A program made the position numbers and the translations under genes. From an uncultured Lachnospiraceae bacterium (lineage in GTDB: Bacteria; Bacillota; Clostridia; Lachnospirales; Lachnospiraceae), in assembly GCA_947631505.1 (NCBI GenBank), contig CANRLR010000011.1:12063-76062 (forward strand): a stretch of DNA of 64,000 nt, in the 5' to 3' direction. Every line of letters starts with the position of its first letter. The first letter of the stretch is position 1. Under the pieces are notes generated by a model that saw only the letters and a list, made by a program, of their open reading frames with translations, had not been told where the DNA came from and did not search any database. Shown one piece after another: positions 7,203-35,954 of the stretch.

Positions 7203-7218
7203 ACTATGCTATGAAAAT
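7203..7218 (+). repeat. Left copy of the flanking direct repeat (probable target-site duplication)
   Basis: ACTATGCTATGAAAAT, identical to 35939-35954. The core 14 bp is 7204-7217 if the element ends are TG...CA. Confidence 0.85.
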
Positions 7219-7374
7219 GAAAATGTCAACCTTTTTTTGTGATATTTTTCTAGTTCTTTACAATTTGTTACTTTTCACAATATAATTGTGACGTTTTTGT
7301 GCATTTTGGATATTTTTTGATACAACAAAAGAACTGCCTGTTCGCCAGTCGGAAAAACATATAGTTCGTATCTA

Positions 7375-8415
7375 CTATGTTACAAGTGCAAGTTCCTTTT
7401 GGAACTCCTGATTTGCAGTACGAAAGCCAAATAACTTTCTAGGATAATTATTCATCCAGTTCTCAACCGCCTTCACTTCCTCATCCGTCATGTGGTCAAA
7501 ATTACTTCCTTTGGGAACCTTCCGCCTGACAAGCCGATTCTGATTTTCATTTGTTCCTCGTTCCCACGATGAATACGCATGACAGTAATATACTTCTGTT
7601 CTGTTCCCACCATACACAGATTTCTCCATCTCTTCAGAAAAGGAGAATTCCGTTCCATTATCTACTGTAATACTTTTAAATACCTTTTTGAAATCATCTT
7701 TCCATAGTCTTTCCAATTCATCTAATTTCTTAACAACCTCACAAGCTGAATGATTCGGCAACTTAAATAGGATTTCTTTCCTAGTCTTCCGCTCGGTAAG
7801 AACAAGCAGCGAATTTTTACTTACACCACGTTTGCCAACAACCGTATCCATTTCCCAGTGCCCAAATTCTTTTCTGTTTTCAATTTTTTTAGGACGTTTA
7901 GCTATGCTTTTACCTGCACTTGCTCTTTTTTGCCTTTTAATATGTCTATAATTCCGTTTCTTCTTTCTTTTAACTGGTAAATCTTTATTGGATAATCGAA
8001 AGAAGATCCCTTTATCGATGTAACTATATAAAGTTGCTACACATATCTTTGTTTTGAATTCCTTTCCCTTTCCAGTTTTTTCTAATTCTCCCAAAACAGC
8101 AGATGGAGAGTAATCTTCTTCTACAATTTTCTTTTCCAAATATTCTGCATAATCATAATCATTAGAAATTTTTAAACCGGTTCCCCTCGTACTCACATTT
8201 TGTTGATATTTTTCTTCTGCCAAATCCGGAGAATATCGCCATTCTTCCGTATAGTCACTATTTCGGTGCAGGTACTTTCCTCTTTTTAGTTCATTCGTAA
8301 TAGTATTTGGATGACAATGCAAACATACTGCTATTTCACCCTTTTTCATTCCTTTTCGTAGTAGGTTTTCAAGTAAAAGCCTATCTTCATATCGTAAATG
8401 TCGATATCCTTTCAC
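7375..8415 (-). CDS. IS30-family DDE transposase (intact)
   Basis: N-terminal HTH (RHLRYEDR...HPNTITNELKR); GHWEMDTVVG, SITVDNGTEF, WERGTNENQNRLVRR catalytic motifs; GTG start. Confidence 0.93.
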   Translation of the reverse strand: MKGYRHLRYEDRLLLENLLRKGMKKGEIAVCLHCHPNTITNELKRGKYLHRNSDYTEEWRYSPDLAEEKYQQNVSTRGTGLKISNDYDYAEYLEKKIVEEDYSPSAVLGELEKTGKGKEFKTKICVATLYSYIDKGIFFRLSNKDLPVKRKKKRNYRHIKRQKRASAGKSIAKRPKKIENRKEFGHWEMDTVVGKRGVSKNSLLVLTERKTRKEILFKLPNHSACEVVKKLDELERLWKDDFKKVFKSITVDNGTEFSFSEEMEKSVYGGNRTEVYYCHAYSSWERGTNENQNRLVRRKVPKGSNFDHMTDEEVKAVENWMNNYPRKLFGFRTANQEFQKELALVT

Positions 8416-8490
8416 AACTGCTCCCCCTCATCATTGGTTATATTGTTAATTTCGCTTATTATTTAAAGAAATTAGAAAAGAACATCTTAC

Positions 8491-8667
8491 TTATTCTTTC
8501 TCCTCTGCTATTTTTTTTAATTTTTCTATTATTAATTTCTCTACATATTGGGGTGGTTTTCTCTTCCCTGTTTCCCAATTTTCAATGGTTCTTTTTGGAA
8601 TTTCAAACCTTTTTGACATTTCTAATTGTGTTAGTCCTGCTTGCGTTCTGTAATCTTTTATTGTCAT
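8491..8667 (-). CDS. Xre/Cro-like HTH transcriptional regulator (58 aa)
   Basis: MTIKDYRTQAGLTQLEMSKRFEIPKRTIENWETGKRKPP; RBS GGGGGA before ATG 8667. Confidence 0.88.
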   Translation of the reverse strand: MTIKDYRTQAGLTQLEMSKRFEIPKRTIENWETGKRKPPQYVEKLIIEKLKKIAEEKE

Positions 8668-8753
8668 TGTTTTATTCCCCCTTTTTATAATTATAGATTT
8701 TGACAATATTCATCTTTGCGGAATCTTCGTCCTTTTTTTCATCTTATGCACAC

Positions 8754-8782
8754 ACAATATCACTCATTGAGTGATATGTCAA
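8754..8782 (-). promoter_or_regulatory. Promoter of the xre-transposase unit with a perfect palindromic operator in its spacer
   Basis: TTGACA (8782-8777), 17 nt, TATTGT (8759-8754); ATATCACTCA-T-TGAGTGATAT at 8757-8777. Confidence 0.75.
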
Positions 8783-8853
8783 GTATTATATTATTATTTT
8801 GTCTTCTAATATCAAAGTTTTTCAAGCTGGGGGCGGATTGTTTTCTATCTTTA

Positions 8854-11058
8854 CTAAGAAAGAGAATTCATTGCCATATAGGCTTCTTTCTTCCGGAACA
8901 TTTCCTCTTCACTCAAAAGCGGATGTATAATGCTCTTAATAACATCTTCCGGCACTTGCAGTTTCTTCAATTCCTTTACCACACTTCTCCTTGTATCGTC
9001 CAACTGGTCAGAGGCAAAGATATCTAAAAGTGGCAGCCGCTCATAACTTTCCCGATACAGCCGTTGTTTCTCTTCTCGTTCCGCTTCCTGTTCCTTATGG
9101 TACAGTTCCTGCATACGTTCCAACGAAAGATTTACCTTGTCAGTATCATTTATTTTTTTGGCAAGTCGATCTAAATCCATGTTCATAAAATCAAATGCAT
9201 TTATCGTATAATGCCGGATTGAAGAATCCTTTTCCGACATCTTTTTGTAGTATTCCATGGATTGGGAATTCAAAAGGCGAATACTGTCCTCTTCCGCTTT
9301 CCGGTGTTCCTGCACTTTATACTTACCATACGATAATGCTTTGTTATAGATTTCATGTTCCCATGGAAACCATTTCTTATCCCGGAGCGGTTCTTCCCCC
9401 CGGACAAACAGGATACATTCATCATCCGGCAGAAGCCGAACCTCATACTCCATCATTAGTTCTCTTCCTAATACATCAAAGTTTTCACTATGTGAACCAG
9501 ACGTGCCGGTGCTTTCTCCTGTCGTTTTTTTATCTACGGTCCATTTTCCGAGTAATTTTGTTATGTATTCAAAGGTACTTTCTTCATTTCCTCCCAAATA
9601 TAGGAACGTATCACAGTTACCGACAACTCCCTCCCATGCTCCATCTGCAAACAGAGTTTTCATCTGTGCTAGGGATTGCAGCATAGGAACACAATAAATT
9701 CCCCGGCTTCGGCAGGTTGCCATTATCTTATCAAAGTTTGCTGGCATTTTAATATTGGCAAACTCATCTAACCAAAATCCAACATCAATAGGAAGTCTTC
9801 CACTATACAATCGAGATTGATAATAAAGTTGGTCAAAAAGCAGTGTATAAACCATTCCGGGAACAAAATTGTAAGTGATATCTTCGTCCGGGATTACCAT
9901 AAAGAGAAAACTTTTTGTTGTTTCATCTCCATCCTTTCCCACACCGAATTCATCCAACGGAATATCATTACTGGTAAAGATTTCCAGCAATTCCTCATTA
10001 TCGAACGGCTGCATGCGTCCATTCACGGTTGCTAGTACGCTTCGTCTAGTATCTTCCGGAGAGCTTAAATATCTGCGGTATGTTTTTACTGCTGGATGAT
10101 TCGGCTCACTTTTTTCCAACTGTTTCATCCGGATATCTAGTTTAGTCGGAGTATCCGGCTCTTCAAATTGTGCTTCATCCAGCAGATACATAATGGATTT
10201 CATATTCTTTTCTAAAATGGTCAGTTCTCCAGTTTCTAAATTTTTAGACACCGTCGGACACTCTCTCCATACATACAAAAAGAGAGCTTCCAAAAACATT
10301 CGTTCCGATTTTTCCCAAAAAGGGTCTGCTGTCGAATTTTTTATTTTCTCCGAATCTGTATTTTGTATCAAGTTGGAAACCAACTTCGATATGTCTTGAC
10401 GTTTTCGCAGGAAAAGAAACGGATTAATATGCATACTCTTTTCAAAGTCAATCAGGTTGAGCGTATATACTCTTGTATTTTCTTGTTCTTGAAGATAATT
10501 TCCTAATTCCTCTAACGTAGAACCTTTGGAATCCGTTATCACGTTAGATCCGTAAGCATTTAATAAGTTGGGGGTTAATAGGAAAGAGGTTTTACCAGCA
10601 CCGGAACCACCAACCACAAAGGTATTGTTATTTCGCAAGGTGGACGCAGCATAACGGAATCGTATATTCTCCGATAAAATCCGGTTATTTTTCTTATTTG
10701 TATCTGCATACTTTTGGTTAAATTTACTTATATCTCCCCATTTTGCGGAACCGAACTCGTTGCCCGGCATACGGTTGTTATTCATTTTGATGTACTGATT
10801 TGCAGTAAAAGTAAACCATAACAATACAACCAGCAGTAAAAATGGTTTGGTCTTTTCGTTCCAACAGGAAAGGGGGTTTTTTAAACAATAGACCAGTTTT
10901 TCTTCCACATTTTCCATTGTAACACCGTCTAAGGCAAACAAACCGCTGATACAAAGTGCTAGATACAATAGAAAAAGAAGAACCAGTACACTTATTATTA
11001 GGAAATTGCGTAAACGGATTTTCCTTGAATCCGTAACATTACTTACTCTTTTTTTCAT
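8854..11058 (-). CDS. virD4: VirD4/TraG-type conjugative coupling protein
   Basis: N-terminal TM segments, FGSAKWG, Walker A VVGGSGAGKT, FWLDEFANI, LQSLAQ. Confidence 0.93.
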   Translation of the reverse strand: MKKRVSNVTDSRKIRLRNFLIISVLVLLFLLYLALCISGLFALDGVTMENVEEKLVYCLKNPLSCWNEKTKPFLLLVVLLWFTFTANQYIKMNNNRMPGNEFGSAKWGDISKFNQKYADTNKKNNRILSENIRFRYAASTLRNNNTFVVGGSGAGKTSFLLTPNLLNAYGSNVITDSKGSTLEELGNYLQEQENTRVYTLNLIDFEKSMHINPFLFLRKRQDISKLVSNLIQNTDSEKIKNSTADPFWEKSERMFLEALFLYVWRECPTVSKNLETGELTILEKNMKSIMYLLDEAQFEEPDTPTKLDIRMKQLEKSEPNHPAVKTYRRYLSSPEDTRRSVLATVNGRMQPFDNEELLEIFTSNDIPLDEFGVGKDGDETTKSFLFMVIPDEDITYNFVPGMVYTLLFDQLYYQSRLYSGRLPIDVGFWLDEFANIKMPANFDKIMATCRSRGIYCVPMLQSLAQMKTLFADGAWEGVVGNCDTFLYLGGNEESTFEYITKLLGKWTVDKKTTGESTGTSGSHSENFDVLGRELMMEYEVRLLPDDECILFVRGEEPLRDKKWFPWEHEIYNKALSYGKYKVQEHRKAEEDSIRLLNSQSMEYYKKMSEKDSSIRHYTINAFDFMNMDLDRLAKKINDTDKVNLSLERMQELYHKEQEAEREEKQRLYRESYERLPLLDIFASDQLDDTRRSVVKELKKLQVPEDVIKSIIHPLLSEEEMFRKKEAYMAMNSLS

Positions 11059-12460: not shown

Positions 12461-13106
12461 GCTTTTTCACCCTTTCTATCCATTTTTTAAAAGTTCCCTG
12501 TTTTATTTGCTGCTCTCGCTCCTTTTTCCCCTGCTCCAATTGATAAAATTGAATATATCTTGCCATCTGCAGCTGGGTTTTATCCGGTGTGGCAAAGTGC
12601 AGAATTTCTTTTTCCGGTATCTGCAACTTAATTGCCTTAGTAATCTCATCTAATTGCGGAGCGGTAAAATTATTTTCTTCCAAGATTAGTTTCTTTATTT
12701 CCGCATACCTGCTTTGCTCTGACTCTTTGGCAAAGGTAATTCTTATATGTTCCTCTTTTTCCAGCTCCTCTAAAGTAACACCAAGTTTAGCAAAAAGTGA
12801 TTCATATCGATTACACAATTCTTCTCTTTTCTTCTGTTCTGCGACAACCGTTTGAATGTATTCCTTTGGTGCCATTTCTTCTCCCGGTGCTGGAAGTTTA
12901 AAAAGCATTGCAATCCGGCACAAATCCTTATCAATTAATTTTTTCTTCGTCTTGTCAAAGAGGTAGGCTTCAATTTCCTCTTCGGACATATCATATCCAA
13001 TTCCAAAAAGGAGAAGAATATAATTTACCGTAGCTTCATCACAGGTTGCTGCAAAGTTATATTTCTTTTGTAATTGTTTTATTCTGCTGTTTTGTTCTTC
13101 TGTCAT
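12453..13106 (-). CDS. Hypothetical ICE protein
   Basis: 217-aa ORF overlapping its neighbours inside the operon. Confidence 0.7.
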   Translation of the reverse strand: MTEEQNSRIKQLQKKYNFAATCDEATVNYILLLFGIGYDMSEEEIEAYLFDKTKKKLIDKDLCRIAMLFKLPAPGEEMAPKEYIQTVVAEQKKREELCNRYESLFAKLGVTLEELEKEEHIRITFAKESEQSRYAEIKKLILEENNFTAPQLDEITKAIKLQIPEKEILHFATPDKTQLQMARYIQFYQLEQGKKEREQQIKQGTFKKWIERVKKHE

Positions 13107-14298
13107 ATTCAGTCACTTCCTTTCCTTGATTCCGCCGGAATCTCTTTAATTCTTTTATTTCCTCATGCTGCTCATCCAGTCTTTCTTCTTTTCCGAAATC
13201 CGGTTTTTTTAAAATCCGGTTTCGTTTAAATGCTTCCTCTTTTTCCAAACAAGAAATCGTTTCCGATAAATCCCGTTCCGAACGAATATTATGCTGATAT
13301 AACAGGGAAATGTCTTTCATCATACGATTGATGGCTCTCACGCTTTGCTCATGGTATTTTAGGGTTGTATTCGTCCGGGAATAAAGCCGTCTTGCTGCCA
13401 AAACCTGACGGACAAAATATTGTTGATAGGGAGACATCGAGTGATACGAAAATTTACGGTAACGATTGATAAACCAATCACTGGAACGGCGGAAGACTAC
13501 TCGGTACATTTCAATTTCATCCCTGTGTTTTCTGCTGACTTTATACAATTCTTTTTCCATTCTCTCACCAATTTTCTTTTCAATAGCTTCTGGAATGTAA
13601 CCACTTTTCAAATGATAAGAACGAATCGCTTTTCCTTTGCCCGGTGGAGTTAAGGCAAGATACACCCCATGCTTTTCCGAAATACCCTCCCGCAGGTTGT
13701 AACCAAATTCCTGTTGCAGCCGGATTTTGAAATCTTTATAGCTTTGGCTGTGTTCGATACACTGATCGATATCATTCTCCACCGTTTCTTTCCAATTGTG
13801 AGCCGGAGAGTAATCCAATTTTCTATCTTTTTCCTTTAATTTCCCGGTTGCATATTTTTCACAAATCCGGTTCGTAAGTGGTGTAATCTTCTGTTTCCAT
13901 TCTCTGTTGTCGTAATGGTATTTCCCGCCAGTCCGTTTCACGGAATTAAAAACAAGGTGCATATGTGTCAGTTCCCGGTCACTGTGTTCCGCTACCACAT
14001 AATCATAGCTATCTCCTAAATATTCCTCCGCCCAATCTTTTATAAATTCCAATGCATTGTCATGGGTAATTTTTTCATCCGCAGAAAAAGAAAATTTGAG
14101 ATGATACCCCTGTCTTTTTCCGCGGACTGGATTCATTTCTTTTGTTAGGAAAAAAGTATCCATAATCTGTTCCACCGTTGTTCCACTATTACTAAATGTT
14201 CTTCCCTGTGTTTTGTATTCCTGCATAACATACCCAATCGCCTTTTTTAAATGGGATTCTGTTACAATCGGTTCATCGAATCGGATAATGATAGACAT
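13057..14298 (-). CDS. MOB_P relaxase
   Basis: AIGYV, GYHLKFSFS, YVVAEHSDRELTHMHLVFNSV (3H motif). Confidence 0.92.
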   Translation of the reverse strand: MSIIIRFDEPIVTESHLKKAIGYVMQEYKTQGRTFSNSGTTVEQIMDTFFLTKEMNPVRGKRQGYHLKFSFSADEKITHDNALEFIKDWAEEYLGDSYDYVVAEHSDRELTHMHLVFNSVKRTGGKYHYDNREWKQKITPLTNRICEKYATGKLKEKDRKLDYSPAHNWKETVENDIDQCIEHSQSYKDFKIRLQQEFGYNLREGISEKHGVYLALTPPGKGKAIRSYHLKSGYIPEAIEKKIGERMEKELYKVSRKHRDEIEMYRVVFRRSSDWFINRYRKFSYHSMSPYQQYFVRQVLAARRLYSRTNTTLKYHEQSVRAINRMMKDISLLYQHNIRSERDLSETISCLEKEEAFKRNRILKKPDFGKEERLDEQHEEIKELKRFRRNQGKEVTEYDRRTKQQNKTITKEI

Positions 14299-14300
14299 TC

Positions 14301-14639
14301 TTATCCCCCTTTCTTTCGCAGAATAGAAACAACGGTTTCGGATAGTTTATTTATCCTATCCATCCTATCTATCAAATCTTTTCTTGGCTGTGTGTAGTGA
14401 TACTCATTATACTTTTTTGCAATCTGATTGATATTTACACCGATTTTCCGAATCTGATAAATATACTCTTGTTGTAACTGGTTAAATTCTGTTCTTGTTA
14501 CCTCCGGTGGGACAGCAATATTTCTTCTCACATATTCACTAATGGTAAGATGTTCTCTTGCTGCTGCACGGCGGAGATTTTCCTTTTCTCTTTTGGTCAG
14601 TCTTACCTTTACAACTTCTGTTTTTGTTCTTGCTTTCAC
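14301..14639 (-). CDS. mobC: MobC relaxosome accessory protein (RHH)
   Basis: VKVRLTKREKENL...LTISEYVR; IRKIGVNINQIAKKYN; likely GTG start at 14639 behind AGGAGAGG. Confidence 0.88.
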   Translation of the reverse strand: MKARTKTEVVKVRLTKREKENLRRAAAREHLTISEYVRRNIAVPPEVTRTEFNQLQQEYIYQIRKIGVNINQIAKKYNEYHYTQPRKDLIDRMDRINKLSETVVSILRKKGG

Positions 14640-14656
14640 CAAACCTCTCCTTTTGA

Positions 14657-14980
14657 TTGTGCAATTTATGTGTAATTTTGCGTATTCAATGCACAAGGTT
14701 ACACAACAATTACACAAAATTACACATTTTTTGTACAATCAAGCACTTTTATTTATGTGCAATTTCTACACATTTTTGTGCTTTTTTACACAACTTGAGA
14801 TTACGAACATTGCACAACTTTTACTCATTTTTGTGCAAATTTTGTGTAATGTATTTTTTCCAAATTACATATTTTTTGTGCAATTATGAATAATTCTACA
14901 TAAATTTACACATTTTTGTGTAATACCATTTTTTGTATTTTGCACATTTTTTGTGTATTTTTGTTCAAGAAATGTGTAAA
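14657..14980. repeat. Array of about 22 degenerate octamers (TTGTGCAA/TTGTGTAA and complements)
   Basis: Copies near 14657, 14669, 14689, 14699, 14710, 14720, 14756, 14786, 14810, 14831, 14842, 14876, 14906, 14916, 14940, 14951, 14972 and others, many 10-11 bp apart. Confidence 0.8.
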
Positions 14981-14986
14981 AAAATG

Positions 14987-15055
14987 CGGGTTTTAACCCG
15001 GCAAGACACGCTTTTTGTGTCCACAAAAAGCAGCTTGTTAGGGAAGTTTCCCTAA
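14987..15055 (-). promoter_or_regulatory. Candidate oriT with nic site
   Basis: Perfect IR GCTTTTTGTG-TC-CACAAAAAGC (15010-15031) followed on the minus strand by GTGTCTTG|CC; flanking IRs at 14987-15000 and 15038-15055; lies upstream of mobC and the relaxase. Confidence 0.65.
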
Positions 15056-25389: not shown

Positions 25390-28300
25390 TTATTTTCACT
25401 CTTTTCCGGCTTTGGATAACCAAAGTCAGTGTCCCTGCCACTGCTGCAAAGATAAAAGCAGCAAGCAAGGTAGGTGTCACCCCACCGGTCTGTGGTACTT
25501 TTGGTGCAGGAAGTCTCTCATCCGTGATACTTATTTTCTGCACCTTTCCAGTGTCTTTCACCGTGTATTTCACAGCCTTTGCCAGCTTGTAACCCTTTGG
25601 TGCTTCCACTTCCTTAAAGGTATAGGTTTCTCCCACTGCCAGCTTCCCGGTAATGTCAGTTCCCTCTCCCTTACTGGTAAAGCTCATGACCTTTTTACCT
25701 TGACTGTCATAGACTTCAAACTTAGCGTCGGACAACCCCTGTCCGGTGTCTCCAGCCAGCTTTATCAGGCGGATTTTTGTCATTTCATCTACCATATGGA
25801 CACCTTGTACCTCTCCAGTGTCTTTGACAGTAAACTCAACATTATCTGCTGTCACATATCCATCTGCCGGTCTTGTTTCGGTCAAAATGTAGGTCTTGCC
25901 AGCCACAAGCTTCTGCTCAATCCGGTGTTTTTCTTTGGTGGATGTCCATTTTTCAATTACCTTGCCGGAATCCTTTTCCTTTATCTCCAGTTCACAGCCC
26001 GGTATCTCCTCCGAACCCGCAATATCTGTCTTAGAGACATCTATTTTGGTCGTTTCATCGACCATTTTCACCACGTTGGAATTACTAAGCACAAATGTAC
26101 CATCTTCATTTTTTAATGCCACCAGTGTTTTCCCTTTTTCCGTGGTGCTTTCCTGCAGTCTAAAAGAAATACTGTCTGCTGTCACATAGCCGTCCGCCGG
26201 TCTTGTTTCCGTCAGCGTATACTCTGTATCATGCTTTAAACCGCCAATCACAAGATGATTGCTATCGGTCATGCTGTATTTTAAGTTACAGGTTTCCAAG
26301 TCCTTATTAGTAAATTTTATGGAATCCTTATCGCCGGATATCCAAGAAACAATCTTCTCCCCGGCAGCATCTGTAATCTGCAGCTGACAGCCCGGTATTT
26401 CTTCACTGCCAGTAACGGAAGTTTTATCAATTTCAACCGAAGTCTGCTGATTGGTACGTTCCACTGTTTTTTCAATAAATGCTGTTTTTTCATCTTTGTA
26501 TTCCAAGTGCAAAGGAATTTCAGTGTTGTCGAGATAATAGCTTTCGCTTACCGATTCCTCCCTGATATAGTAATCCCCGGAATTTAAGGTTACGGCACTT
26601 CCAGTCACAGCTGCACCACTGGCAGTTACCGCAGCAGCGGACACCGCTTCCGGATATCCCTCGGACATCAATGGGAGGTCAAGGTCAGATTCTGCTTCTC
26701 CCTTTTCATCCGTACACATTGTTCCTAATTTGTCTCCGGCAGAAACAATCTTCTCCCCGGCAGCATTAAAAATGTCGTCTTTGCTGTAGACACCAAAGGT
26801 AACGTTTGGAACCGCTTCTCCGGAATCGCTGTCCGTCTTTTTCAGGTTCAGCTTTGCTTTTGCTCTCTCGTTTAAGACAGTCAGAACACCTCTTGAATCC
26901 GTGGTGTCCGTAGCATTTAATACCACAGTTTCATCCTTGTTGCTCCATGTAAATTCCACACTCCATTCCTTTTCCGGAAGAAGATAACCATAAAGTGTCT
27001 GTTTCTCCTTAACAGTGTATTTACCTAATGGGAGGTTTACGGTTACGGTGCCATTTTTATCCATGGTAAATCCGGTAATGCCATTACATTCGGATTCAAA
27101 AGAAGCTCCTTCTCCGGTTACCACCGTTCCGACCAGCTCTCCTTTCTCAAACCAGTTTGTCTTTTGGTTATCCTGCGTGGCAATATCTTCCGCAGCATAA
27201 ATTTCAAAAGTAACACCATTTAAGTAGGTTTCCTCATAGGTAAATTGTCCATCGGCATCAGAAAATCCGGTCAGCTGCTCTCCCTTTTTTAAAATAGACA
27301 GTTCGCCAGCTGTCTCGTAATTGGTGTATTCCAGTTCGACAACAGAATAGGTTGTACCGTCAGAATCAGTCTCTGTGGTGTAGTTATCCTTTTTGCTGCC
27401 AATTTCTACTGTAATGCTCGGAGTAGAAATATGATATCCGGTTGCCGTATTAATCTCATAAATTTTGTACGTTCCTGATTTTAATGCTTGATACGTCATG
27501 ATCTGCCCAGATTCATCACTGGCAAAGCGGTCCGCTGTTTCCATTTTGGAACCGTTACTGTAGGACTGTGTAACAAGATTCTCTTTCCCATCTGCAACCC
27601 GATAAATCTGATAGGTGGTTCCCGGCTTCAATACGGTCTTCTTTGTATGTCCGTCTTTTTTTACGATCCAGAGATAGGCTTTAAAAATGTTATTATTTAG
27701 ATAGTAAGTAAGTTTCTTATGGTTGTCAGTTTCACCATTTTTTCCGACCTCGATATCAAAGTCAGCTACTTTTTCAGTGTCGGCATCCCCAGTAGACACC
27801 TGATGGACCGTATAGACCCCTTTGTACAGTTCTTTGGATTCAGCAGAACCATTTTCATCCGTCGTAACCGTATCCCGGTCATAATCCGAACAGGCACTAT
27901 AGCTTCCTTTTTCTTTCAGATAAACTTGGAATACCGCTCCTTTTTCCGGTTCTAATACCCCGGTCTTTCCCTCGGAGTAAAATTTGTGAATATCTAACGA
28001 CATTTTCACCGGTTCATTTGCAATTTCCAGTGTCTTTCCATTTAAGATATACTCATTTGCAGCATAATCACTTCCATTCACGGTTATCGTGGTAACCTTA
28101 GTATTTAAACAATATCCGGACGGAGCTTTTACTTCTTTTAGATAATAGGTGCTTCCGGCTTTCAGATAATCGGTTGTGAATGTTCCGTTTTTTATTGTGT
28201 ACGTTCCCGCCATTTTCGTTGTTCCATCTGCATTGTATACTGTAGCTGCTTTGGTACAGGCAGAATCCGCATAAAGTTTAAACTGTGCCCCCTCTAAGGT

Positions 28301-29560
28301 GGCACTTCCATGGGCTTTCTTATCTGCACTGGAACTGTCTGTCTTGTTGACTTTTACACTTACCTTTTTAAAGTTATTTACGACATTGACCGTATAGGGT
28401 TTCCGTACAGCGTCCCCGGCACTGTCCGAATCCGCCGTCCATGTATTGGCACGTTTTAACGTAATATCCACCCCTTTGGCATACACCGGAGATACAACAA
28501 TGTTGGCATTGCCCGTGGAAATCTCTCTCACAGTGTGTTTGTTGGCAATGTCCTGATACTGGGAATCTAAATCTTTTTCCATCAGGGTGACTGCTTCATC
28601 ATGAGTCAAATTTTTACCATAACGGTAATCCTGTTCATCCCAATCCTCTTTTGTAGCTTTAATCTCGGCTGAGGACATGCTTTCAGCCTGCATGAGATAA
28701 TAATAAGTATGGGTCTGAATCCGGTATTTCAGCTTAAAAGCAACTTTACCTTCGGAATCAGTCATTCCATTGATGGTCGGGGAATCAAACTCCTTTTCTG
28801 CCTCACCATTAACAGAGTAGTAATACAGGGTATCAATATCCTCTGCTGTCAGCTGGAACTGAACACCTGGTAACGGATTTCCCGCCTCATCTTTTTTTAC
28901 AATGTCAATTTCCTGATAAAGATAAAAACCCTGATTCATAGAAGATGGCTTCGGCTTCTCTGGACCTGATTTCATGACAAGAAGTTCCTGCCGGTGGGTT
29001 CCGGAACCGGCCGGTTTCCATAAGGTTACTTCTGCTGATACCGTATTAGATGGTTCAAAGATATCCGAATACAGTTCCGCCGCACTTCTACTATCATAGT
29101 ATCCAGTGTTGCTTCTTACCTTGCTTATAACTGCTTTCAGTTTTGCTTCCGAGGTTTCCCCCTCCTGTACTGCCCACACAAGAGCTTGTGCGTACACAAA
29201 CGCTTTGTTACTCTGTTTCTTTACTTCATCATACCAGTAGCCGATACAGGCTAGGAGGCCCTTTTTCCCACTGTCGGTCGAGTAATAGGTATCGGAGCTG
29301 GAGGTATAGGAATCCCCACTGTGGCACGTATAGCCTAAGTTCATACAAAAAGCATCTTTACCGTTAATATGCATCTGCCACCAGCTGCCGGATTTGGTCT
29401 TGCTGCCAATTGACACGCTGCCTTTGTTTCCTAAGTTATCCAGTGTTACACTACTGGAAGCTGCTTCCACGGTTACCGGACTGCCCATTCGTGGGACCAT
29501 GCCAATGACCAGTGCCAGCATTAAAAGAACAGCTACAATTTGTTTCTTTGTTAATTTCAT
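25379..29560 (-). CDS. Large sortase-anchored adhesin (thioester domain + SpaA/Cna-B repeats)
   Basis: Signal peptide MKLTKKQIVAVLL (likely start 29560); AFCMNLG and HRQELL (TED Cys/Gln); repeated YYLKEVKAPSGY/ETRPADGY units; VPQTGG + TM + basic tail. Confidence 0.88.
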   Translation of the reverse strand: MKLTKKQIVAVLLMLALVIGMVPRMGSPVTVEAASSSVTLDNLGNKGSVSIGSKTKSGSWWQMHINGKDAFCMNLGYTCHSGDSYTSSSDTYYSTDSGKKGLLACIGYWYDEVKKQSNKAFVYAQALVWAVQEGETSEAKLKAVISKVRSNTGYYDSRSAAELYSDIFEPSNTVSAEVTLWKPAGSGTHRQELLVMKSGPEKPKPSSMNQGFYLYQEIDIVKKDEAGNPLPGVQFQLTAEDIDTLYYYSVNGEAEKEFDSPTINGMTDSEGKVAFKLKYRIQTHTYYYLMQAESMSSAEIKATKEDWDEQDYRYGKNLTHDEAVTLMEKDLDSQYQDIANKHTVREISTGNANIVVSPVYAKGVDITLKRANTWTADSDSAGDAVRKPYTVNVVNNFKKVSVKVNKTDSSSADKKAHGSATLEGAQFKLYADSACTKAATVYNADGTTKMAGTYTIKNGTFTTDYLKAGSTYYLKEVKAPSGYCLNTKVTTITVNGSDYAANEYILNGKTLEIANEPVKMSLDIHKFYSEGKTGVLEPEKGAVFQVYLKEKGSYSACSDYDRDTVTTDENGSAESKELYKGVYTVHQVSTGDADTEKVADFDIEVGKNGETDNHKKLTYYLNNNIFKAYLWIVKKDGHTKKTVLKPGTTYQIYRVADGKENLVTQSYSNGSKMETADRFASDESGQIMTYQALKSGTYKIYEINTATGYHISTPSITVEIGSKKDNYTTETDSDGTTYSVVELEYTNYETAGELSILKKGEQLTGFSDADGQFTYEETYLNGVTFEIYAAEDIATQDNQKTNWFEKGELVGTVVTGEGASFESECNGITGFTMDKNGTVTVNLPLGKYTVKEKQTLYGYLLPEKEWSVEFTWSNKDETVVLNATDTTDSRGVLTVLNERAKAKLNLKKTDSDSGEAVPNVTFGVYSKDDIFNAAGEKIVSAGDKLGTMCTDEKGEAESDLDLPLMSEGYPEAVSAAAVTASGAAVTGSAVTLNSGDYYIREESVSESYYLDNTEIPLHLEYKDEKTAFIEKTVERTNQQTSVEIDKTSVTGSEEIPGCQLQITDAAGEKIVSWISGDKDSIKFTNKDLETCNLKYSMTDSNHLVIGGLKHDTEYTLTETRPADGYVTADSISFRLQESTTEKGKTLVALKNEDGTFVLSNSNVVKMVDETTKIDVSKTDIAGSEEIPGCELEIKEKDSGKVIEKWTSTKEKHRIEQKLVAGKTYILTETRPADGYVTADNVEFTVKDTGEVQGVHMVDEMTKIRLIKLAGDTGQGLSDAKFEVYDSQGKKVMSFTSKGEGTDITGKLAVGETYTFKEVEAPKGYKLAKAVKYTVKDTGKVQKISITDERLPAPKVPQTGGVTPTLLAAFIFAAVAGTLTLVIQSRKRVKINDK

Positions 29561-29591
29561 TTTCTTTTCCTTTCCATGTACAAAGACTTCC

Positions 29592-29696
29592 TTACCGGAA
29601 ATCTCTGCATAACAAAGGGATATGTCCCTTGAACATATCCCTGACAACAGTTACCCTGATAAAGTTTTCCTTTGGCGGTGACCGCACTTTTTTCAT
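29592..29696 (-). CDS. Possible 34-aa leader ORF ahead of the adhesin
   Basis: ATG 29696 with AAGGAAG upstream; MKKVRSPPKENFIRVTVVRDMFKGHIPLLCRDFR. Confidence 0.3.
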   Translation of the reverse strand: MKKVRSPPKENFIRVTVVRDMFKGHIPLLCRDFR

Positions 29697-29727
29697 CTTT
29701 CATCACTTCCTTTTCTAATTTGGGTAC

Positions 29728-29760
29728 AAAAAAAGTCCTCCGGCAACTGCCGAAAGACTT
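29728..29760 (-). terminator. Intrinsic terminator in the leader of the conjugation operon
   Basis: AAGTCTTTCGGCA-GT-TGCCGGAGGACTT followed by a T-run on the minus strand. Confidence 0.8.
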
Positions 29761-29768
29761 CTACATTT

Positions 29769-29830
29769 CTTTACAATTATAGTTTACTACACTGTTCTAT
29801 GACTTGCAACGACATTTCAGGTACACTTTT
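29769..29830 (-). repeat. 62-bp duplicated promoter-like element, copy 1
   Basis: Matches 30989-31050: a 23-bp block containing minus-strand TATAAT, 9 variable bp, then a 30-bp block with 1 mismatch. Confidence 0.85.
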
Positions 29831-30898
29831 TTAATTAGTCAAAGTAATATAATTCACTCCCTCACTCATGGCTTTTGCAGTAAATGTTACCGAATTTGCC
29901 TTTTCATAACCGGTGGGAGCTTTCGTTTCATAAATTTTGTACGTATGCCCCGGAATCAACCCTTTTAGTATAGTACGCTCTCCTTTCTTTGGAATATCAT
30001 AACACCAAGAGGACTGTTCCCTGTCTGCCATATCATAAATTATAAAACTGGAACCCGTTAAAAACTTACCTGTTATTCTATCCTGACGCTTTACAACAAC
30101 TTTTGCTGATGTTGTTTTGTAACTTTTCCAGTTATCCATTTCCTTTGCCGAAAGCGATGAAAACATGGCAATACCAACGCTTTTATATATTACAATAGCA
30201 CCACTCTGCCAATTTTCATCTATCATGTTTCTATAATGCCCTGCACTTTCTTTCCAATCATTAACCGCCTCTGTTGCTTTCGTCGCATGATCTAAATTTT
30301 CTGAAATATCATTAATTTCCAATTTATCATAGAAATCTCCAAAATAATCAGAATAGTCTCCAAACATATATGCGTGTTTATCAAAACCATGTGTCTTCAA
30401 ACGATATAGACCTACCTCATATAACTCATCCGACCACTGAAGTGGTTCAACTCCAGCATTTTTGCGATACTTGTTCTGCAGAGCGAACGCTTTCTTTGCT
30501 TTCTTTTTTGCACTGGCACTTTTTGCAATATCCAAATATGTAGTAACTGTCACTTTGTACTTATATGTTTTGTACTTCTTTTTTGTCCGGTAGACTTTAA
30601 CCGTTATTGTTGTCTTGCCTTTTTTCTTTCTAGTTATTTGGATATATTGCCCCATCTGTTTATCTTTTTTCAGTTTTGCCGTGGCAATCCCCTTTTTACT
30701 GTATTTTACCTTTATTTTTTTGATTTTATAACGGAAGAAAAAGCAACGGTTGTTCGTTCCAGATTCCTTGTCTTTAATCAATGTTACTTTTTTGGTTATC
30801 ACTTTAGCTTTTTTTGCCAGTGCTTCTTTGGGTGCCGGTACTGCCACCAGTGCCATAGCCAGCACGAATACAAACATTCTATTTATCTTCTTTTTCAT
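29831..30898 (-). CDS. Secreted CAP (SCP-like) domain protein with C-terminal SpaA-like domain
   Basis: Signal peptide; FALQNKYRKNAGVEPLQW, ENL, WKESAGHYRNM; YKIYETKAPTGY. Confidence 0.8.
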   Translation of the reverse strand: MKKKINRMFVFVLAMALVAVPAPKEALAKKAKVITKKVTLIKDKESGTNNRCFFFRYKIKKIKVKYSKKGIATAKLKKDKQMGQYIQITRKKKGKTTITVKVYRTKKKYKTYKYKVTVTTYLDIAKSASAKKKAKKAFALQNKYRKNAGVEPLQWSDELYEVGLYRLKTHGFDKHAYMFGDYSDYFGDFYDKLEINDISENLDHATKATEAVNDWKESAGHYRNMIDENWQSGAIVIYKSVGIAMFSSLSAKEMDNWKSYKTTSAKVVVKRQDRITGKFLTGSSFIIYDMADREQSSWCYDIPKKGERTILKGLIPGHTYKIYETKAPTGYEKANSVTFTAKAMSEGVNYITLTN

Positions 30899-31064: not shown

Positions 31065-31445
31065 TTAAAACATCATTTCCATAGCCTCCATAACATCTTT
31101 ATCAATGTTATCTTCCTCCGATTTTCCTTCTACTGTTTCATCCGGCTTTTGTTCCGGATTCCGCACCTTTTTTCCCACTTCTCTTTGTGGCTGCTCTGTA
31201 GACACTGGTAACGTCATCGAACCAAGAGTTTCCTGAATCGTTTCCATAATCACATTTCGTAGGTCTTCTGCCGTCTGCAAATCCAGGCGGTTGCCCTTTT
31301 TAAAAAATAAAACCGCTTGCTTTATGTACCAGCTCATATTTCCCTTTCTTGCCAGTATTTCATAAACCTCTTTATCTACTTTGTTATCAAGGTTTAACAC
31401 AAGTTGTATGCGTTTTGTTCTCTCGTTATCCTTTGCCATTGCCAT
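31065..31445 (-). CDS. ParR-like DNA-binding adaptor (RHH-like N-terminus, acidic tail)
   Basis: KRIQLVLNLDNKVDKEVYEIL...SWYIKQAV; C-terminal DVMEAMEMMF; same operon as parM. Confidence 0.6.
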   Translation of the reverse strand: MAMAKDNERTKRIQLVLNLDNKVDKEVYEILARKGNMSWYIKQAVLFFKKGNRLDLQTAEDLRNVIMETIQETLGSMTLPVSTEQPQREVGKKVRNPEQKPDETVEGKSEEDNIDKDVMEAMEMMF

Positions 31446-31448
31446 TTT

Positions 31449-32696
31449 CTATTCCTCCTTTTTTCCATACATATCGTGCTGAACTTGATTTTGTATATCC
31501 AGTTCCTGCTGCTCTTTTGCCAAATACAAAACCGTTAAAAGATATGCCCGGTGATTCCGGATCTTTGTTGTCTGCTCATCATATTTTTCAAGAGCATATA
31601 GAATATCACCACAATTTAACTTTAACAACCTGCCTTTTACTACCGAAGCTGGTTTATCCTCACCGGAAATCCGGATAGTCCTTTTGGTCGAATTCAGTGT
31701 ATCATATAGGATATTCATTACTAAATTTATCCGTTTCCTGTCCGAACTGGTCATTTTTATCAAATCCTCGTAATCATACCAACTGTTCACAAAAGAAAGC
31801 GGATAGGTTTCTTTGCTATTTTCCGGAAGTTTCTTCAAAAGTTCCTGTTTCAATTTACGTTTTTGCTGGAAAAAGCAGATTTCAGCTGCAGATGACTCAC
31901 CATTCTTTTTTTTCTCTTCTTCCCAAACAGCTGTCTTCTGCAGAAAGGTATTTACGAAAGTCTCCGTCCCATCTATCCCATCCACAGGGCAGACTTCGCC
32001 CTGTGCCTTCCAATCATTTTGGGATTGGATAGATAGATTAGAATTATTATAATTTTTTGTATTCTTAGAAGTATTCTCTGTATATGGGTACAATTTTGTT
32101 ACCACCCTATTAACATTTTTGTCACTAGGGGGTGTCATATGCTCCGTTTCTGTTATTTCCCTAGTATCATTTTTGTTACTAGGGGGTAACGAAGTTCTGT
32201 TTTCCTGCTCTGCTGGTTCTTTTTCCTTTTTCAGCACAAGACAATCTTTTTTGTCTTCAACTCCTGTTCCATAGGTCAATGTAACAAGTACATCCGGAAT
32301 CAGTTCGATATACATTACATTATTTACCGTTGTCCCGTCTGTATAAGTAATAGTTCTATAGTATCTTTTAATTACACCAATATCCTCCAGCCGATTCAGA
32401 GCGTCTCGGAGAACTCTCTTACTCTCTCCAAACTCCTGACTTAATTTCTTATAGGACATAAAGAGTAAATCATCACGGAATTTCTTTTCCATTGTAATTT
32501 CATGCGTATCTTCATCTACCTCTTCCTTTGCCCGGTACCAGTAAACAAACTCTGCTAATAGGTCTCTTGCCAGTGGATACGGTTTTCCATTTTCCTTTGT
32601 AATTGTCTTTCGCCATGTCCGAGGAGTAATGTTCCCACTAAAATTTATTTTGGAAACTTCATCCACGATCTTATTGCCAGTCGATAACTGTCCCAT
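31449..32696 (-). CDS. Replication initiator (phage-type wHTH N-terminus, DUF6017-like C-terminus)
   Basis: NFSGNITPRTWRKTITKENGKPY...EFVYWYR; TIRISGEDKPASVVKGRLLKLN...KIRNHRAYLLTVLY. Confidence 0.75.
   Translation of the reverse strand: MGQLSTGNKIVDEVSKINFSGNITPRTWRKTITKENGKPYPLARDLLAEFVYWYRAKEEVDEDTHEITMEKKFRDDLLFMSYKKLSQEFGESKRVLRDALNRLEDIGVIKRYYRTITYTDGTTVNNVMYIELIPDVLVTLTYGTGVEDKKDCLVLKKEKEPAEQENRTSLPPSNKNDTREITETEHMTPPSDKNVNRVVTKLYPYTENTSKNTKNYNNSNLSIQSQNDWKAQGEVCPVDGIDGTETFVNTFLQKTAVWEEEKKKNGESSAAEICFFQQKRKLKQELLKKLPENSKETYPLSFVNSWYDYEDLIKMTSSDRKRINLVMNILYDTLNSTKRTIRISGEDKPASVVKGRLLKLNCGDILYALEKYDEQTTKIRNHRAYLLTVLYLAKEQQELDIQNQVQHDMYGKKEE
32114..32187 (+). repeat. Iteron-like 20-bp direct repeats inside rep
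   Basis: CATTTTTGTYACTAGGGGGT at 32114-32133 and 32168-32187, a partial copy at ~32091, and an AT-rich tract at ~32035-32080. Confidence 0.65.
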
Positions 32697-32707
32697 TTTT
32701 CACGCTC

Positions 32708-33616
32708 CTATTTTTTCAATCTGTTATAAGTTAAAACTTCATAACCGTTCGCATTGCAGAAAATATCATCAATAATTGTCATTTGCTTTTGTCTGCTATA
32801 GTAATTTTTTACTACTGTAGCACCGCCACCACACAGAATCAGGTTTCCGCTGTCAATTTTAGCATTTAGCAACTTCATTACCTCTTGTACATGGTGCTTT
32901 ATCATATCCTTAATAAATTGGACTTTCTTTTCCTCTATGGACACCTTTTCCTTTTGAAAAATACACTGGATATCCTCTTCATCAACAGCTTCCTGATATT
33001 TAGTTAAATAATATTTGGTTATACTGTCAATCCAGTCCAGTGTTCCTTTCTTGTCTATGGAAAAGCATAAATCATAGAACGGTTTTCCTCTCCGGTAAGT
33101 GATAACATCGATTGTCCGGGAACCGATATCTGCCACCGATAAGGTCTTACCCTTGTATTTTCCCATCTCCGTGGCCATTACTGGAAGCCCCTGCGGATAT
33201 ACATATACGTCTTTCAGTTCAATTTGGTACTTTATTCCCTCAAAACAAAAGGTCAGGTTCTTCTTCTTTAACAGGTAGTCATGGAAATTCTCCTTTTGTG
33301 CCGAAAAGAACGAATAAGGCAATCCCACCGAAAGCACTACATTCTTTGCACTCTTTATTTGGTTATGCTTCAGTTCCTTTGCCATTGCTGCCAATGTCAG
33401 ATTGTAGTAATCCTCGGTCAATGTCTTATCGGCAAGTTGCTCGGAACGAATCTGCCCCACAACATAAGTCCGGTGGTTCAACTCCAAAATGTCTTCATCA
33501 AAAGGGGGACGTATCGGAACTTCTTCAATACCGCTTTTTATAATACTGTTAGCACTTTTTATGTAGCCATAACCATGGTCAATGCCAATTATCGTATATT
33601 CTCCTAATTTCTTCAT
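32708..33616 (-). CDS. parM: ParM/StbA actin-like partition ATPase
   Basis: IIGIDHGYGYIKS, VYVYPQG, VADIGSRTIDV, LCGGGA. Confidence 0.9.
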   Translation of the reverse strand: MKKLGEYTIIGIDHGYGYIKSANSIIKSGIEEVPIRPPFDEDILELNHRTYVVGQIRSEQLADKTLTEDYYNLTLAAMAKELKHNQIKSAKNVVLSVGLPYSFFSAQKENFHDYLLKKKNLTFCFEGIKYQIELKDVYVYPQGLPVMATEMGKYKGKTLSVADIGSRTIDVITYRRGKPFYDLCFSIDKKGTLDWIDSITKYYLTKYQEAVDEEDIQCIFQKEKVSIEEKKVQFIKDMIKHHVQEVMKLLNAKIDSGNLILCGGGATVVKNYYSRQKQMTIIDDIFCNANGYEVLTYNRLKK

Positions 33617-34269
33617 AACTTTATATCCTTTCCATCCAGTATTAGTTCCATTTGCCCGCTTAAAACTGGATTATCTTTTAGTTTCTCCCGCTTTTTTGGT
33701 TCCTTTGCCACGACATCAACAGTTGACTGCAAAGCAAGCTGGTAATTGGTCAAATCCGAGTTGTATCGGTTTAACATATCTAACAATGCCTGTTTCCGGA
33801 TTCCCAATACCTTACGATGGGAAAGGTCAAGGTCATATTCGATACACTCCCACTTTTCCTTTTTTACATACAAACGGTTCAATATCTCTTTACTGGTAGA
33901 ATCAAGGGTATCATAAACCAATTCCAACCGATGATAATGCTCGGATTTTTCAAGCAGAAGCTGGTATTTTATAGACAATTCTTCCCTATGTTCTTGTATC
34001 ATTTTTTGCGTTACCGATAATAAATCACCGAGGTCTTTCTTTTTCCCGGAGCCGGAACCACTGGTATCGTCATAATGAATACCAACTTGTATTGTCGTTA
34101 TAATATCTCTCACGACAGCACTGTTTTGGTTATTTAATTCTAAGATATCTCTTCGTACTTCCAACATTTGTTCATACAGCTCTTTGGTACAAGCTGGATG
34201 GCTTATATAATATATAACATTTTCAAGACTGGTATAATACCGGACTTCCTTAGTCGCAATACCTTCCAT
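33613..34269 (-). CDS. Putative transcriptional activator (ArpU/RinA or sigma-70 region 4-like C-terminal HTH)
   Basis: YDTLDSTSKEILNRLYVKKEKWECIEYDLDLSHRKVLGIRKQAL. Confidence 0.6.
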   Translation of the reverse strand: MEGIATKEVRYYTSLENVIYYISHPACTKELYEQMLEVRRDILELNNQNSAVVRDIITTIQVGIHYDDTSGSGSGKKKDLGDLLSVTQKMIQEHREELSIKYQLLLEKSEHYHRLELVYDTLDSTSKEILNRLYVKKEKWECIEYDLDLSHRKVLGIRKQALLDMLNRYNSDLTNYQLALQSTVDVVAKEPKKREKLKDNPVLSGQMELILDGKDIKL

Positions 34270-34289
34270 GTTAAAACCTCACTTTTTAT

Positions 34290-34745
34290 TTACATAAACG
34301 GCAAATTATTTTCTAATCCGTCCGGAATCGTGCTAAAATCTTCTTCCCTACCCCTATTATCATTTTCGTTATCAGGGGGTAATGAATTTCCGGAATTCTT
34401 TTCTGCCACCGATTTTCTTTCCGCAAATTCAATTTTTTCTATAATTACTTGTACTCCATAAACTTTTTCCCCATTTTTATTAGTATAATTATTGTTTTGG
34501 ACTCTTCCAACCAGTGACAGCCGGGAACCTTTTCTAAAGTATTTTTCCACCACCTCCGCCTGTTTCCGAAAAGCCACACAGTGGAAGAAATCTGCGTCCG
34601 GCTCTCCCTCTCTTGCATAGGGACGATTAACCGCCATATCAAAATATGCAATTGCATAAGAAGTATCTCCCTGTGTATACCGGATTTCCGGCGTACGTGT
34701 TATATTTCCCAATAAAATAATCATGTTCATGTTGTTATCCTCCAA
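34290..34745 (-). CDS. ssb: Single-stranded DNA-binding protein
   Basis: MNMIILLGNITRTPEIRYT, DFFHCVAF, KGSRLSLVGRVQ, acidic tail ending LPFM. Confidence 0.93.
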   Translation of the reverse strand: MEDNNMNMIILLGNITRTPEIRYTQGDTSYAIAYFDMAVNRPYAREGEPDADFFHCVAFRKQAEVVEKYFRKGSRLSLVGRVQNNNYTNKNGEKVYGVQVIIEKIEFAERKSVAEKNSGNSLPPDNENDNRGREEDFSTIPDGLENNLPFM

Positions 34746-35250: not shown

Positions 35251-35268
35251 TATCTTTCTCCTTTCAGA

Positions 35269-35466
35269 CTAAACTAATAATTGTGCTTTAATGGCTTTGT
35301 ATTCTTCCCTTGACATTCCGCTACGTGAAAACTCAATTGCGATTGTATTTTTATGACGATTAAGAATACAAGCAATTCCCTCTGATTTACAACCATCTTG
35401 TATCATGTGTTCCATAATTACTCGATCCTTATAGGTAATCTGTTTGGATTTGCTAGGTGTAGCCAT
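35269..35466 (-). CDS. Stand-alone IS30-type helix-turn-helix protein (65 aa)
   Basis: KQITYKDRVIMEHMIQDG...IACILNRHKNTIAIEFSR; 15/41 identical to the transposase N-terminal HTH by hand alignment; RBS GGGGGTG. Confidence 0.8.
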   Translation of the reverse strand: MATPSKSKQITYKDRVIMEHMIQDGCKSEGIACILNRHKNTIAIEFSRSGMSREEYKAIKAQLLV

Positions 35467-35615
35467 GGATATCACCCCCTTTTCTTTTCCCTCCAAGTCT
35501 TGCCCCTTCGCCCAAAAGACGAAAGGGTATCACAAAACTCTTTTGGAGGAAAATGCTATAAAAATATATAAAACTCCCCTATAAAATATATAGAGGTTAG
35601 TTTTTACATAATTTT

Positions 35616-35786
35616 TTATTCCTCGTATATTGTGTTTGAATAGACAGAAACACTATCTGCATCAGGTATTTTATTTGTATATTTGTTTACAGGAAACTTC
35701 ACTAACCGCCTTGTAACAGTCTTTCTTCCGTCCAGTATCACCCGGACCATGTCCGTGTTAAATAATATTGGTAATACTCTACTCAT
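35616..35786 (-). pseudogene. 56-aa fragment of a phage-type protein (PILFNTEMVRAILDGRKTxTRR-like motif, ASCH-like)
   Basis: Hand translation MSRVLPILFNTDMVRVILDGRKTVTRRLVK...; RBS AAAGGAG; shorter than the family members I recall. Confidence 0.55.
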
Positions 35787-35828
35787 TTATTTCACGCTCC
35801 TTTATCATCTTTCTATCCAATAAAAAAA

Positions 35829-35923
35829 GAAGTTACGAAAAGTCTTAATAACTCTTCATAACTTCTAATTCTTTTCCTTATTATCTAAGAAGTTGTAAAG
35901 TGCTATTTGCTTTTCACAACTTC
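35829..35923. repeat. Two related subterminal palindromes at the right end
   Basis: GAAGTTACGAAAAG-N9-CTCTTCATAACTTC (35829-35865) and GAAGTTGTAAAG-N9-CTTTTCACAACTTC (35889-35923). Confidence 0.7.
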
Positions 35924-35938
35924 ATTATAAAACTTACC

Positions 35939-35954
35939 ACTATGCTATGAAAAT
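35939..35954 (+). repeat. Right copy of the flanking direct repeat
   Basis: ACTATGCTATGAAAAT, identical to 7203-7218, 8 bp from the GH13 stop codon. Confidence 0.85.

Follow-up and report, generated by a model that had tools for sequence, protein, structure and literature searches.

To our knowledge, integrative and conjugative elements (ICEs) moved by a DDE transposase are known from few lineages only, namely TnGBS, ICE6013 and the Mycoplasma ICEs. Indeed, a gut-microbiome survey by Jiang et al. reported no ICE or integrative and mobilizable element with a transposase (PMC6907783). Here we describe a locus within a 64,000-nucleotide stretch of DNA (the window) from an uncultured Lachnospiraceae bacterium (GenBank assembly GCA_947631505.1, contig CANRLR010000011.1, positions 12,063 to 76,062), in which positions 7218-35938 very probably constitute a 28.7-kb ICE with rep and par genes, inserted by its own IS30-family DDE transposase with a promoter-proximal 15-bp target duplication. 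A sequence-only reading of the window had noted a repeat-bracketed conjugative module and ascribed it to such an enzyme; the observation is confirmed by the present analysis and the interpretation is supported. Three of the refuting outcomes that the reading had listed were checked, and none overturned it.

ICE6013 of Staphylococcus aureus has an IS30-like DDE enzyme as its sole recombinase, exists in integrated and extrachromosomal forms and uses many sites (PMC3942029, PMC7563843, PMC6036120); as a member of the Tn916 superfamily, it carries a MobT (Rep_trans) relaxase, a TcpA coupling protein and MPF_FATA-type transfer genes (PMC7563843). The window element resembles it as a probable ICE with an IS30-type enzyme as its only recombinase, but differs in having a PF03432 relaxase, VirD4, a CD1110-family VirB4, and ParM and rep-like genes. 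Moreover, ICE6013 produces duplications of roughly 3 bp in palindromic AT-rich targets, whereas those of the window element are 15 bp long and lie by promoters.

The TnGBS elements of Streptococcus, with the related ISLre2/ISKra4, are DDE-type ICEs with plasmid-type maintenance that form an IS-to-ICE family (IS, insertion sequence), and their insertion is oriented, 15-17 bp upstream of sigma-A -35 hexamers, a trait described as unusual among prokaryotic transposases (PMC3942029). The clade to which the window transposase belongs likewise inserts at a fixed distance upstream of apparent -35 hexamers (29/45 flanks; 9/13 elements). However, the TnGBS enzyme is Mutator-like (p-MULT 3) while that of the window is of the IS30 family, and the window-clade end lies 26 bp rather than 15-17 bp upstream of the -35 hexamer. 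The resemblance looks like convergence, not homology.

Typical IS30-family members make 2-3-bp target duplications and carry 20-30-bp terminal inverted repeats, a pattern from which the window element departs in its 15-bp duplication and its asymmetric ends. Unusually long duplications by an IS30-type enzyme are also found with IS1630 of Mycoplasma fermentans, where they are variable (16-26 bp) and the targets are inverted repeats (PMC2853133, PMC3317919). IS1630 is, however, a 1.2-1.4-kb IS with 27-bp terminal inverted repeats, whereas the window clade has a fixed, promoter-proximal 15-bp duplication.

Two further cases lie closer still. According to the available text of the report by Cornuault et al., the Faecalibacterium phage Lagaffe produces virions, its prophage lies between direct repeats where inverted ones were expected, and its IS30-family integrase is "atypical" (PMC5883640); that same text reports no duplication length, promoter targeting or junction promoter. 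Lagaffe and the Clostridium phage Saumur share the transposase clade and the end architecture of the window element, and in Lagaffe a helix-turn-helix (HTH) gene likewise precedes the transposase, with a gene for an HTH-type DNA-binding protein following the junction of its ends; unlike the window element, both are tailed temperate phages and not conjugative. An "unknown MGE" (mobile genetic element) of Pumilibacteraceae, about 15 kb long, carries an IS30 transposase at its edge, 15-bp direct repeats and a TraG/TraD-domain protein, without a flanking IS30 inverted-repeat pair; its authors were unable to say how it is mobilised and took the repeats for a sign of site-specific recombination (bioRxiv 10.64898/2026.07.08.737213). 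Its likeness to the window element is drawn from the published description, and it differs in carrying an inovirus-type gene.

With elements of the Tn1549/CTn type (CD1110/CD1115) the window element shares a CD1110-family VirB4 and a VirD4 whose nearest plasmid homologs carry a CD1115-family annotation. Tn1549/CTn-type elements carry a tyrosine integrase/excisionase module, whereas no tyrosine or serine recombinase domain was found in the window element's open reading frames (ORFs). The union of an IS30-type integrase, a CD1110/CD1115-type conjugation machine and plasmid-type partition is a new combination. In the open full-text literature, subscription journals lying outside the scope of the search, we found no description of this type of ICE, of a duplication fixed at 15 bp or of IS30 enzymes that target promoters.

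Element borders and asymmetric ends

The sequence-only reading had placed a 16-mer direct repeat at the element borders, and ACTATGCTATGAAAAT indeed occurs exactly at 7203-7218 and at 35939-35954, the match ending there without further extension; dinucleotide shuffles gave a chance expectation of 0.06 for the 16-mer at <=2 mismatches. Comparing ends across relatives set the element at 7218-35938 (28,721 bp) and the target duplication at 15 bp (7203-7217 and 35939-35953), with the 16th matching base being the element's own terminal base, the terminal A of ...TTTTCA. The earlier proposal of a 14-bp duplication with TG...CA ends was right about the CA end; the other tip begins GGTAAG rather than TG, and neither a 14-bp nor a 16-bp duplication holds up. 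The features that define the insertion are as follows.

7163-7191, minus strand: promoter-like target of the insertion, TTGCAT (7191-7186), 17 nt, TACAAT (7168-7163), starting 11 bp after the duplication
7203-7217, no strand: target-site duplication, transposase-end copy, 15 bp, ACTATGCTATGAAAA on the plus strand
7218-7242, minus strand: right end (RE), TCACAA-AAAAAGG-TTGACA-TTTTCA-tip, with the inverted-repeat core at 7237-7242 and an outward -35 hexamer at 7224-7229
7375-8415, minus strand: IS30-family DDE transposase, 346 aa, intact, last element gene (NF033563, HTH_38 + rve)
35914-35938, minus strand: left end (LE), tip-GGTAAGTTT-TATAAT-G-AAG-TTGTGA, with the -10 hexamer at 35929-35924 and the inverted-repeat core at 35919-35914
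35939-35953, no strand: target-site duplication, left-end copy, lying 9 bp past the alpha-amylase stop codon

The two ends are asymmetric, LE being N9-TATAAT-N4-TTGTGA and RE being TCACAA-N7-TTGACA-N6, so that TTGACA lies six bases from the RE tip and TATAAT nine bases from the LE tip. In the integrated LE of the window, TTTCAT occupies the position where a -35 hexamer would stand. In line with the sequence-only reading, a search for an IS-sized inverted repeat around the transposase gene of the window found no convincing one. No IS-sized LE adjoins the gene. A short sub-terminal inverted-repeat core of 6-8 bp does exist, equally far in from each tip; in the window subfamily it is TTGTGA/TCACAA at positions 20-25, and in most others it reads AAATGCGA/TCGCATTT. 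The LE and RE motifs each occur once in the window, 28.7 kb apart. A third near-copy of the 16-mer, AATATGCTATGAAAAG with two mismatches, lies at 51376-51391 on the minus strand; as a target-type site it was rejected, a -35 hexamer being absent at the expected distance, and it is probably a chance match.

The last element gene had been called an intact IS30 transposase, which profile searches bore out. The protein scored 232 bits against NF033563 (cut-off 80); HTH_38 was above its cut-off and rve below the Pfam cut-off (27.2 vs 32.6). Among 22 homologs, the candidate DDE residues D190 and D252 were invariant, as were both candidate glutamates, E285/E290. No tyrosine or serine recombinase domain was matched in any of the 26 element ORFs searched with Pfam and NCBIfam profiles, again in line with the earlier reading.

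Independent insertions, an empty site and promoter-proximal targets

More than 7000 non-redundant homologs of the transposase were found at E <= 1e-20, the closest of which (66-71% identity) lie behind an equivalent string of hydrolase, MobC, relaxase and VirD4 genes. A Roseburia metagenome-assembled genome (MAG) holds the same type of element with both ends on one contig, between copies of a different repeat, (A)GACATGAAAAAAGTG; its LE, GGTAAGTTTTATAATGAAGTTGTGAAAAGC..., is identical to that of the window over the first 36 nt, and its RE reads ...CACAAAAAAAGGTTGAAATTTTTA. Downstream of the transposase gene, the motif TTGA(A/C)ATTT is kept at about 45 of 80 loci in species genomes, and flanks diverge just past it, which fixes the RE tip. 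Altogether, 13 clade elements of 1.2-47 kb had both ends defined, with exact flanking repeats of 14-18 bp, each a different sequence, that trim to 15 bp with consistent tips in every case but one (L060, 14 bp); at two further loci (L026, L082) a convincing repeat pair was not found.

The 1.2-kb element L060 has a transposase 53% identical to that of the window as its sole gene, and shows the same RE and an exact 14-bp repeat. The transposase alone therefore suffices for such insertion. The sequence-only reading had counted a free IS homolog as evidence against itself; L060 is one, but it has the same end architecture, and since the LE and RE motifs occur once each in the window, the substrate there is the whole 28.7 kb.

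In two metagenome contigs from different samples (L013/L014), the transposase gene runs straight into the element's first genes across the junction TTGAAA-TTTTCA-AC-GGTAAGTTT-TAAAAT (RE-AC-LE), and the Lagaffe genome record has the same RE-AC-LE order. The order of sequences in L013/L014 indicates an element in circular or tandem form, its ends ~2 bp apart. Given this 2-bp spacer, each junction forms a -35/N17/-10 promoter reading into the element; at a window element's junction with a 2-bp spacer, the hexamers would likewise be 17 nt apart. A search of 400 family genomes for the LE motif returned the window itself and one other match only, which we rejected as chance; it lies inside a coding region of a genome whose best transposase homolog has 33% identity.

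The check set in advance by the sequence-only reading, an empty site with one repeat copy, was found in a metagenome contig. Exact-protein look-up of the 73-aa ORF adjoining the element yielded two short contigs, one of which (L107) joins window 36395-35939 directly to 7218-6444 with a single repeat copy, and the other (L106) holds the occupied transposase-side junction at 100% identity. Because the 16-bp repeat is shorter than typical assembly k-mers, a chimeric join at L107 is argued against. No empty site was found with the joined flanks in 60 related species genomes (one genome per species), and exact look-up of the flanking amylase protein matched no record. The intergenic locus between amylase and cas6 is polymorphic: in other strains of the species (L100-L105), a 245-aa NERD/Zn-ribbon gene stands in place of a ~430-bp segment that includes the target site and the 73-aa ORF. 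Strain contigs bearing cas6 were rejected as empty sites, the NERD gene replacing the segment that holds the target.

We aligned 45 distinct RE flanks at the RE tip. Their consensus reads 15 nt (A-rich at 8-13), 11 A-rich nt, TTGaCA, 17 nt and TAtAaT. In 22 of these flanks the TTG begins at position 27, and in nine more it begins one nucleotide to either side (26 or 28), as against five or fewer at any other position. The full pattern TTGnnn-N16-18-TAnnnT begins 26-28 nt past the RE tip in 29/45 flanks; across 2000 shuffles, the mean was 0.28 such flanks and the highest number reached was 3. Measured from the RE-side duplication, the motif begins at exactly 12 nt in 9/13 delimited elements and at 13 nt in L060, where reading the 14-bp repeat as 15 bp would bring the distance to 12. 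A single delimited element, in a Eubacteriales MAG (L088), has the promoter on its LE side (TTGACA-17-TATAAT, start at 12 nt, an 11-bp gap from the duplication), so that the geometry is kept when orientation is reversed; no LE-side motif was seen among the others of the 13 examined. We also discarded the possibility that the element inserts into copies of its own RE (TTGACATTT), since by eye the extended motif is present in just 4/45 flanks. Comparison thus shows the enzyme clade to place the duplication 11 bp upstream of a predicted sigma-A-type -35 hexamer, covering 12-26 bp upstream of it, over what appears to be the A-rich UP-element region, usually with RE facing the promoter. With this placement upstream of the -35 hexamer, insertions are intergenic and leave the promoter core intact.

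Transposases of the clade are not confined to ICEs. Enzymes with 55-62% identity end tailed prophages, in the order tail, diversity-generating retroelement (DGR), holin, lysin, HTH, transposase and then chromosome, and the cultured phages Lagaffe (52% identity) and Saumur (55.5%) carry members as well. A phage remnant (L036) also has a clade transposase. An 8.8-kb inovirus-like element in an Oscillospiraceae MAG (L081, 2290-11063) combines Zot and a Rep_trans rolling-circle initiator with a clade transposase, a 15-bp duplication and TTGACA-17-TATATT 11 bp beyond. The window's own genome holds a second clade element of 6.5 kb on contig 21 (L016, 5258-11808; G000:C21 ~14257-20807), with a transposase of 52% identity, a flanking 15-bp repeat, CCCGATACGCAAAAC, and a promoter-like TTGCAA-17-TATGAT 11 bp after the duplication; its cargo comprises Sel1, ParA, a ParB-like protein and a CAP+SpaA protein 80% identical to the CAP protein of the ICE (29831-30898). 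In a maximum-likelihood tree, five ICE-borne transposases form a 100/100 clade nested in a 100/97 clade that includes phage-borne ones. The earlier proposal of an ICE family accordingly stands as to an IS30-driven ICE with a long duplication, but the transposase clade also serves phages, small elements and ISs. As a separate observation, DGR prophages on metagenome and NCBI contigs (L111-L115; mtd, bAvd and reverse transcriptase) have a clade transposase in the integrase's place, with chromosomal genes next.

Proposed mechanism and competing explanations

We propose that the transposase, encoded at the 3' end of the element, acts on the two asymmetric ends, LE and RE. By analogy with IS30, and as the relatives suggest, the element would be copied or cut out of the chromosome and leave it as a circle whose ends abut with ~2 bp between them. 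The circle junction of the window element would read ...TTGACATTTTCA-NN-GGTAAGTTTTATAAT... and would create a consensus-like TTGACA-N17-TATAAT promoter reading into the HTH-paralog, ssb, par, rep, conjugation and transposase string, possibly activating this long operon. The relaxase, VirD4 and VirB4 machinery would then transfer the circle by conjugation, the rep-like, ParM and SSB genes would maintain it, and the HTH paralog may have a regulatory role. Insertion of the circle junction into a target, the two strands being joined at points 15 bp apart, would generate the 15-bp duplication.

Several observations weigh against this account or parts of it. For DDE enzymes, a stagger of 15 bp is unusual. 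The exact tips, hence a duplication of 15 rather than 16 bp, depend on aligning the ends of relatives. Abutted ends were observed in relatives and not in the window copy. Coverage of the empty-site contig L107 is low (1.8x), it may represent a never-occupied allele and not an excision product, and the NERD gene at the locus in other strains marks it as variable. As to targeting, the promoter pattern is missing from about one third of the flanks, and the target promoter in the window matches the consensus at only 8/12 positions and was not called by a promoter scan; a stronger TTGACA-17-TATATT lies at 7021-6993.

The identical 16 bp at both borders resemble attL/attR cores and several element ORFs have no family assignment, so that the repeat could be the att core of an unrecognised site-specific or host recombinase with the IS30 gene as a passenger. 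We regard this as exceedingly improbable, given that the flanking repeat differs at every insertion, that the circle junctions hold ~2 bp and not a 15-16-bp core, that an element consisting of the transposase alone yields the same kind of repeat, and that end sequences co-vary with transposase lineage. Capture of a conjugative plasmid in the chromosome by an ordinary resident IS, through a cointegrate or IS-mediated capture, would account for the plasmid-like rep-like, ParM and SSB genes, and it draws some support from a relative that assembles as a ~37-kb circle and from the free IS copies of the clade. However, the window has a single transposase gene, RE and LE, with no IS-sized LE by the gene; five lineages, in different hosts and sites, keep this gene order with the transposase at its end; the insertion is precise, with its 15-bp duplication; and PLSDB holds no close plasmid relatives (transposases at <=42% identity, VirD4 at ~41%). 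Such a capture is thus very unlikely.

A third explanation accepts the transposase and attributes the apparent promoter targeting to a preference for AT-rich, bent intergenic DNA or to selection after insertion. The flanks are A-rich with phased A-tracts, and this explanation would accommodate both the flanks that lack the pattern and the weak promoter match of the window's target. It would not readily yield a TTG peak as sharp as that observed, a -10-like hexamer at 16-18-nt spacing, an 11-bp spacing to the duplication that stays fixed even in the one reversed insertion, or the excess over composition-preserving shuffles, and we consider it rather unlikely.

Transposase-driven integration near promoters leads to a broader proposal, towards which we lean: in gut Clostridia, this large IS30 clade, whose own circle junction resembles a consensus promoter, may represent a general-purpose "promoter-docking" integrase, common to tailed phages, an inovirus-like element, ICEs, small cargo elements and bare ISs, in which the promoter or bound RNA polymerase would position the transpososome, and which would form a not yet recognised family independent of the Mutator-like TnGBS enzymes. 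One enzyme clade and one end architecture link three unexplained published cases, namely the "atypical" integrase of Lagaffe, the IS30-transposase prophage clusters in gut genomes and, by description, the "unknown MGE" with 15-bp repeats. The insertion rule is also common to the window element, to L060 and to a dozen more delimited elements. An IS30 enzyme that docks near promoters and staggers its strand transfers by a fixed 15 bp would be new in mechanism and would represent a second, independent case of promoter-targeted transposition, and a simple annotation rule would delimit many integrase-less prophages and ICEs in Clostridia.

Gene content of the element and its surroundings

All substantial ORFs between the repeat copies lie on the minus strand. 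In addition to the transposase gene, we assigned the following features.

8491-8706, minus strand: small HTH_3 (Xre-type) regulator directly upstream of the transposase gene (profile match)
8854-11058, minus strand: VirD4-type coupling protein (PF02534), nearest plasmid homologs annotated as CD1115 family
13057-14298, minus strand: PF03432 relaxase (profile match)
14301-14738, minus strand: MobC/NikA accessory protein (profile match)
16101-17786, minus strand: cell-wall hydrolase, lysozyme/NlpC (profile match)
17783-20191, minus strand: VirB4, CD1110 family (NF045971, 647 bits)
20178-21287, minus strand: DUF5688 protein
21399-21794, minus strand: PrgI
21809-22630, minus strand: membrane protein without a family match, earlier called VirB6
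within 21809-24486, minus strand: weakly matching type IV secretion system (T4SS) pilin-like protein, and an ArdC-type antirestriction/zincin protein
24607-30898, minus strand: sortase, 1422-aa SpaA-repeat surface adhesin and CAP+SpaA surface protein (the last at 29831-30898)
31065-34745, minus strand: plasmid-like maintenance block, including small ORFs without assignment
31449-32696, minus strand: DUF6017 rep-like protein
32708-33616, minus strand: ParM-like actin
34290-34745, minus strand: SSB
35269-35496, minus strand: first element gene, a 75-aa stand-alone HTH_38 paralog of the transposase domain

Most of the conjugation module listed by the sequence-only reading was recovered by profile (relaxase, MobC, VirD4, VirB4, PrgI, hydrolase, sortase and adhesin), as were the rep and par genes, in the form of the DUF6017 rep-like protein and the ParM-like actin; the proposed VirB6 had no family match and the match of the proposed VirB2 was weak. 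By these assignments, the conjugation module is of the CD1110/CD1115 type and not of the ICE6013 type. With a predicted integration enzyme of its own, a relaxase, a coupling protein, a T4SS and precise chromosomal borders, the element has the putative make-up of an ICE.

The element sits directly upstream of a cas operon (window 4185-7200); strain contigs L100-L101 show the order cas6 (window 5971-6681), an unassigned gene, cas7, an unassigned gene and cas3. A short GC hairpin followed by a T-run (7325-7350, minus strand) separates the stop codon of the transposase gene from the RE repeats and is conserved in relatives (L013, L017); it is terminator-like, yet a terminator scan made no call there. 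The arrangement of an HTH_3 regulator before the transposase recurs in phage relatives. At the opposite end, the stand-alone HTH_38 paralog aligns with the HTH of the transposase over 41 aa at 37% identity (E 2e-7), and an HTH gene occupies the equivalent position in L013 and in phage Lagaffe.

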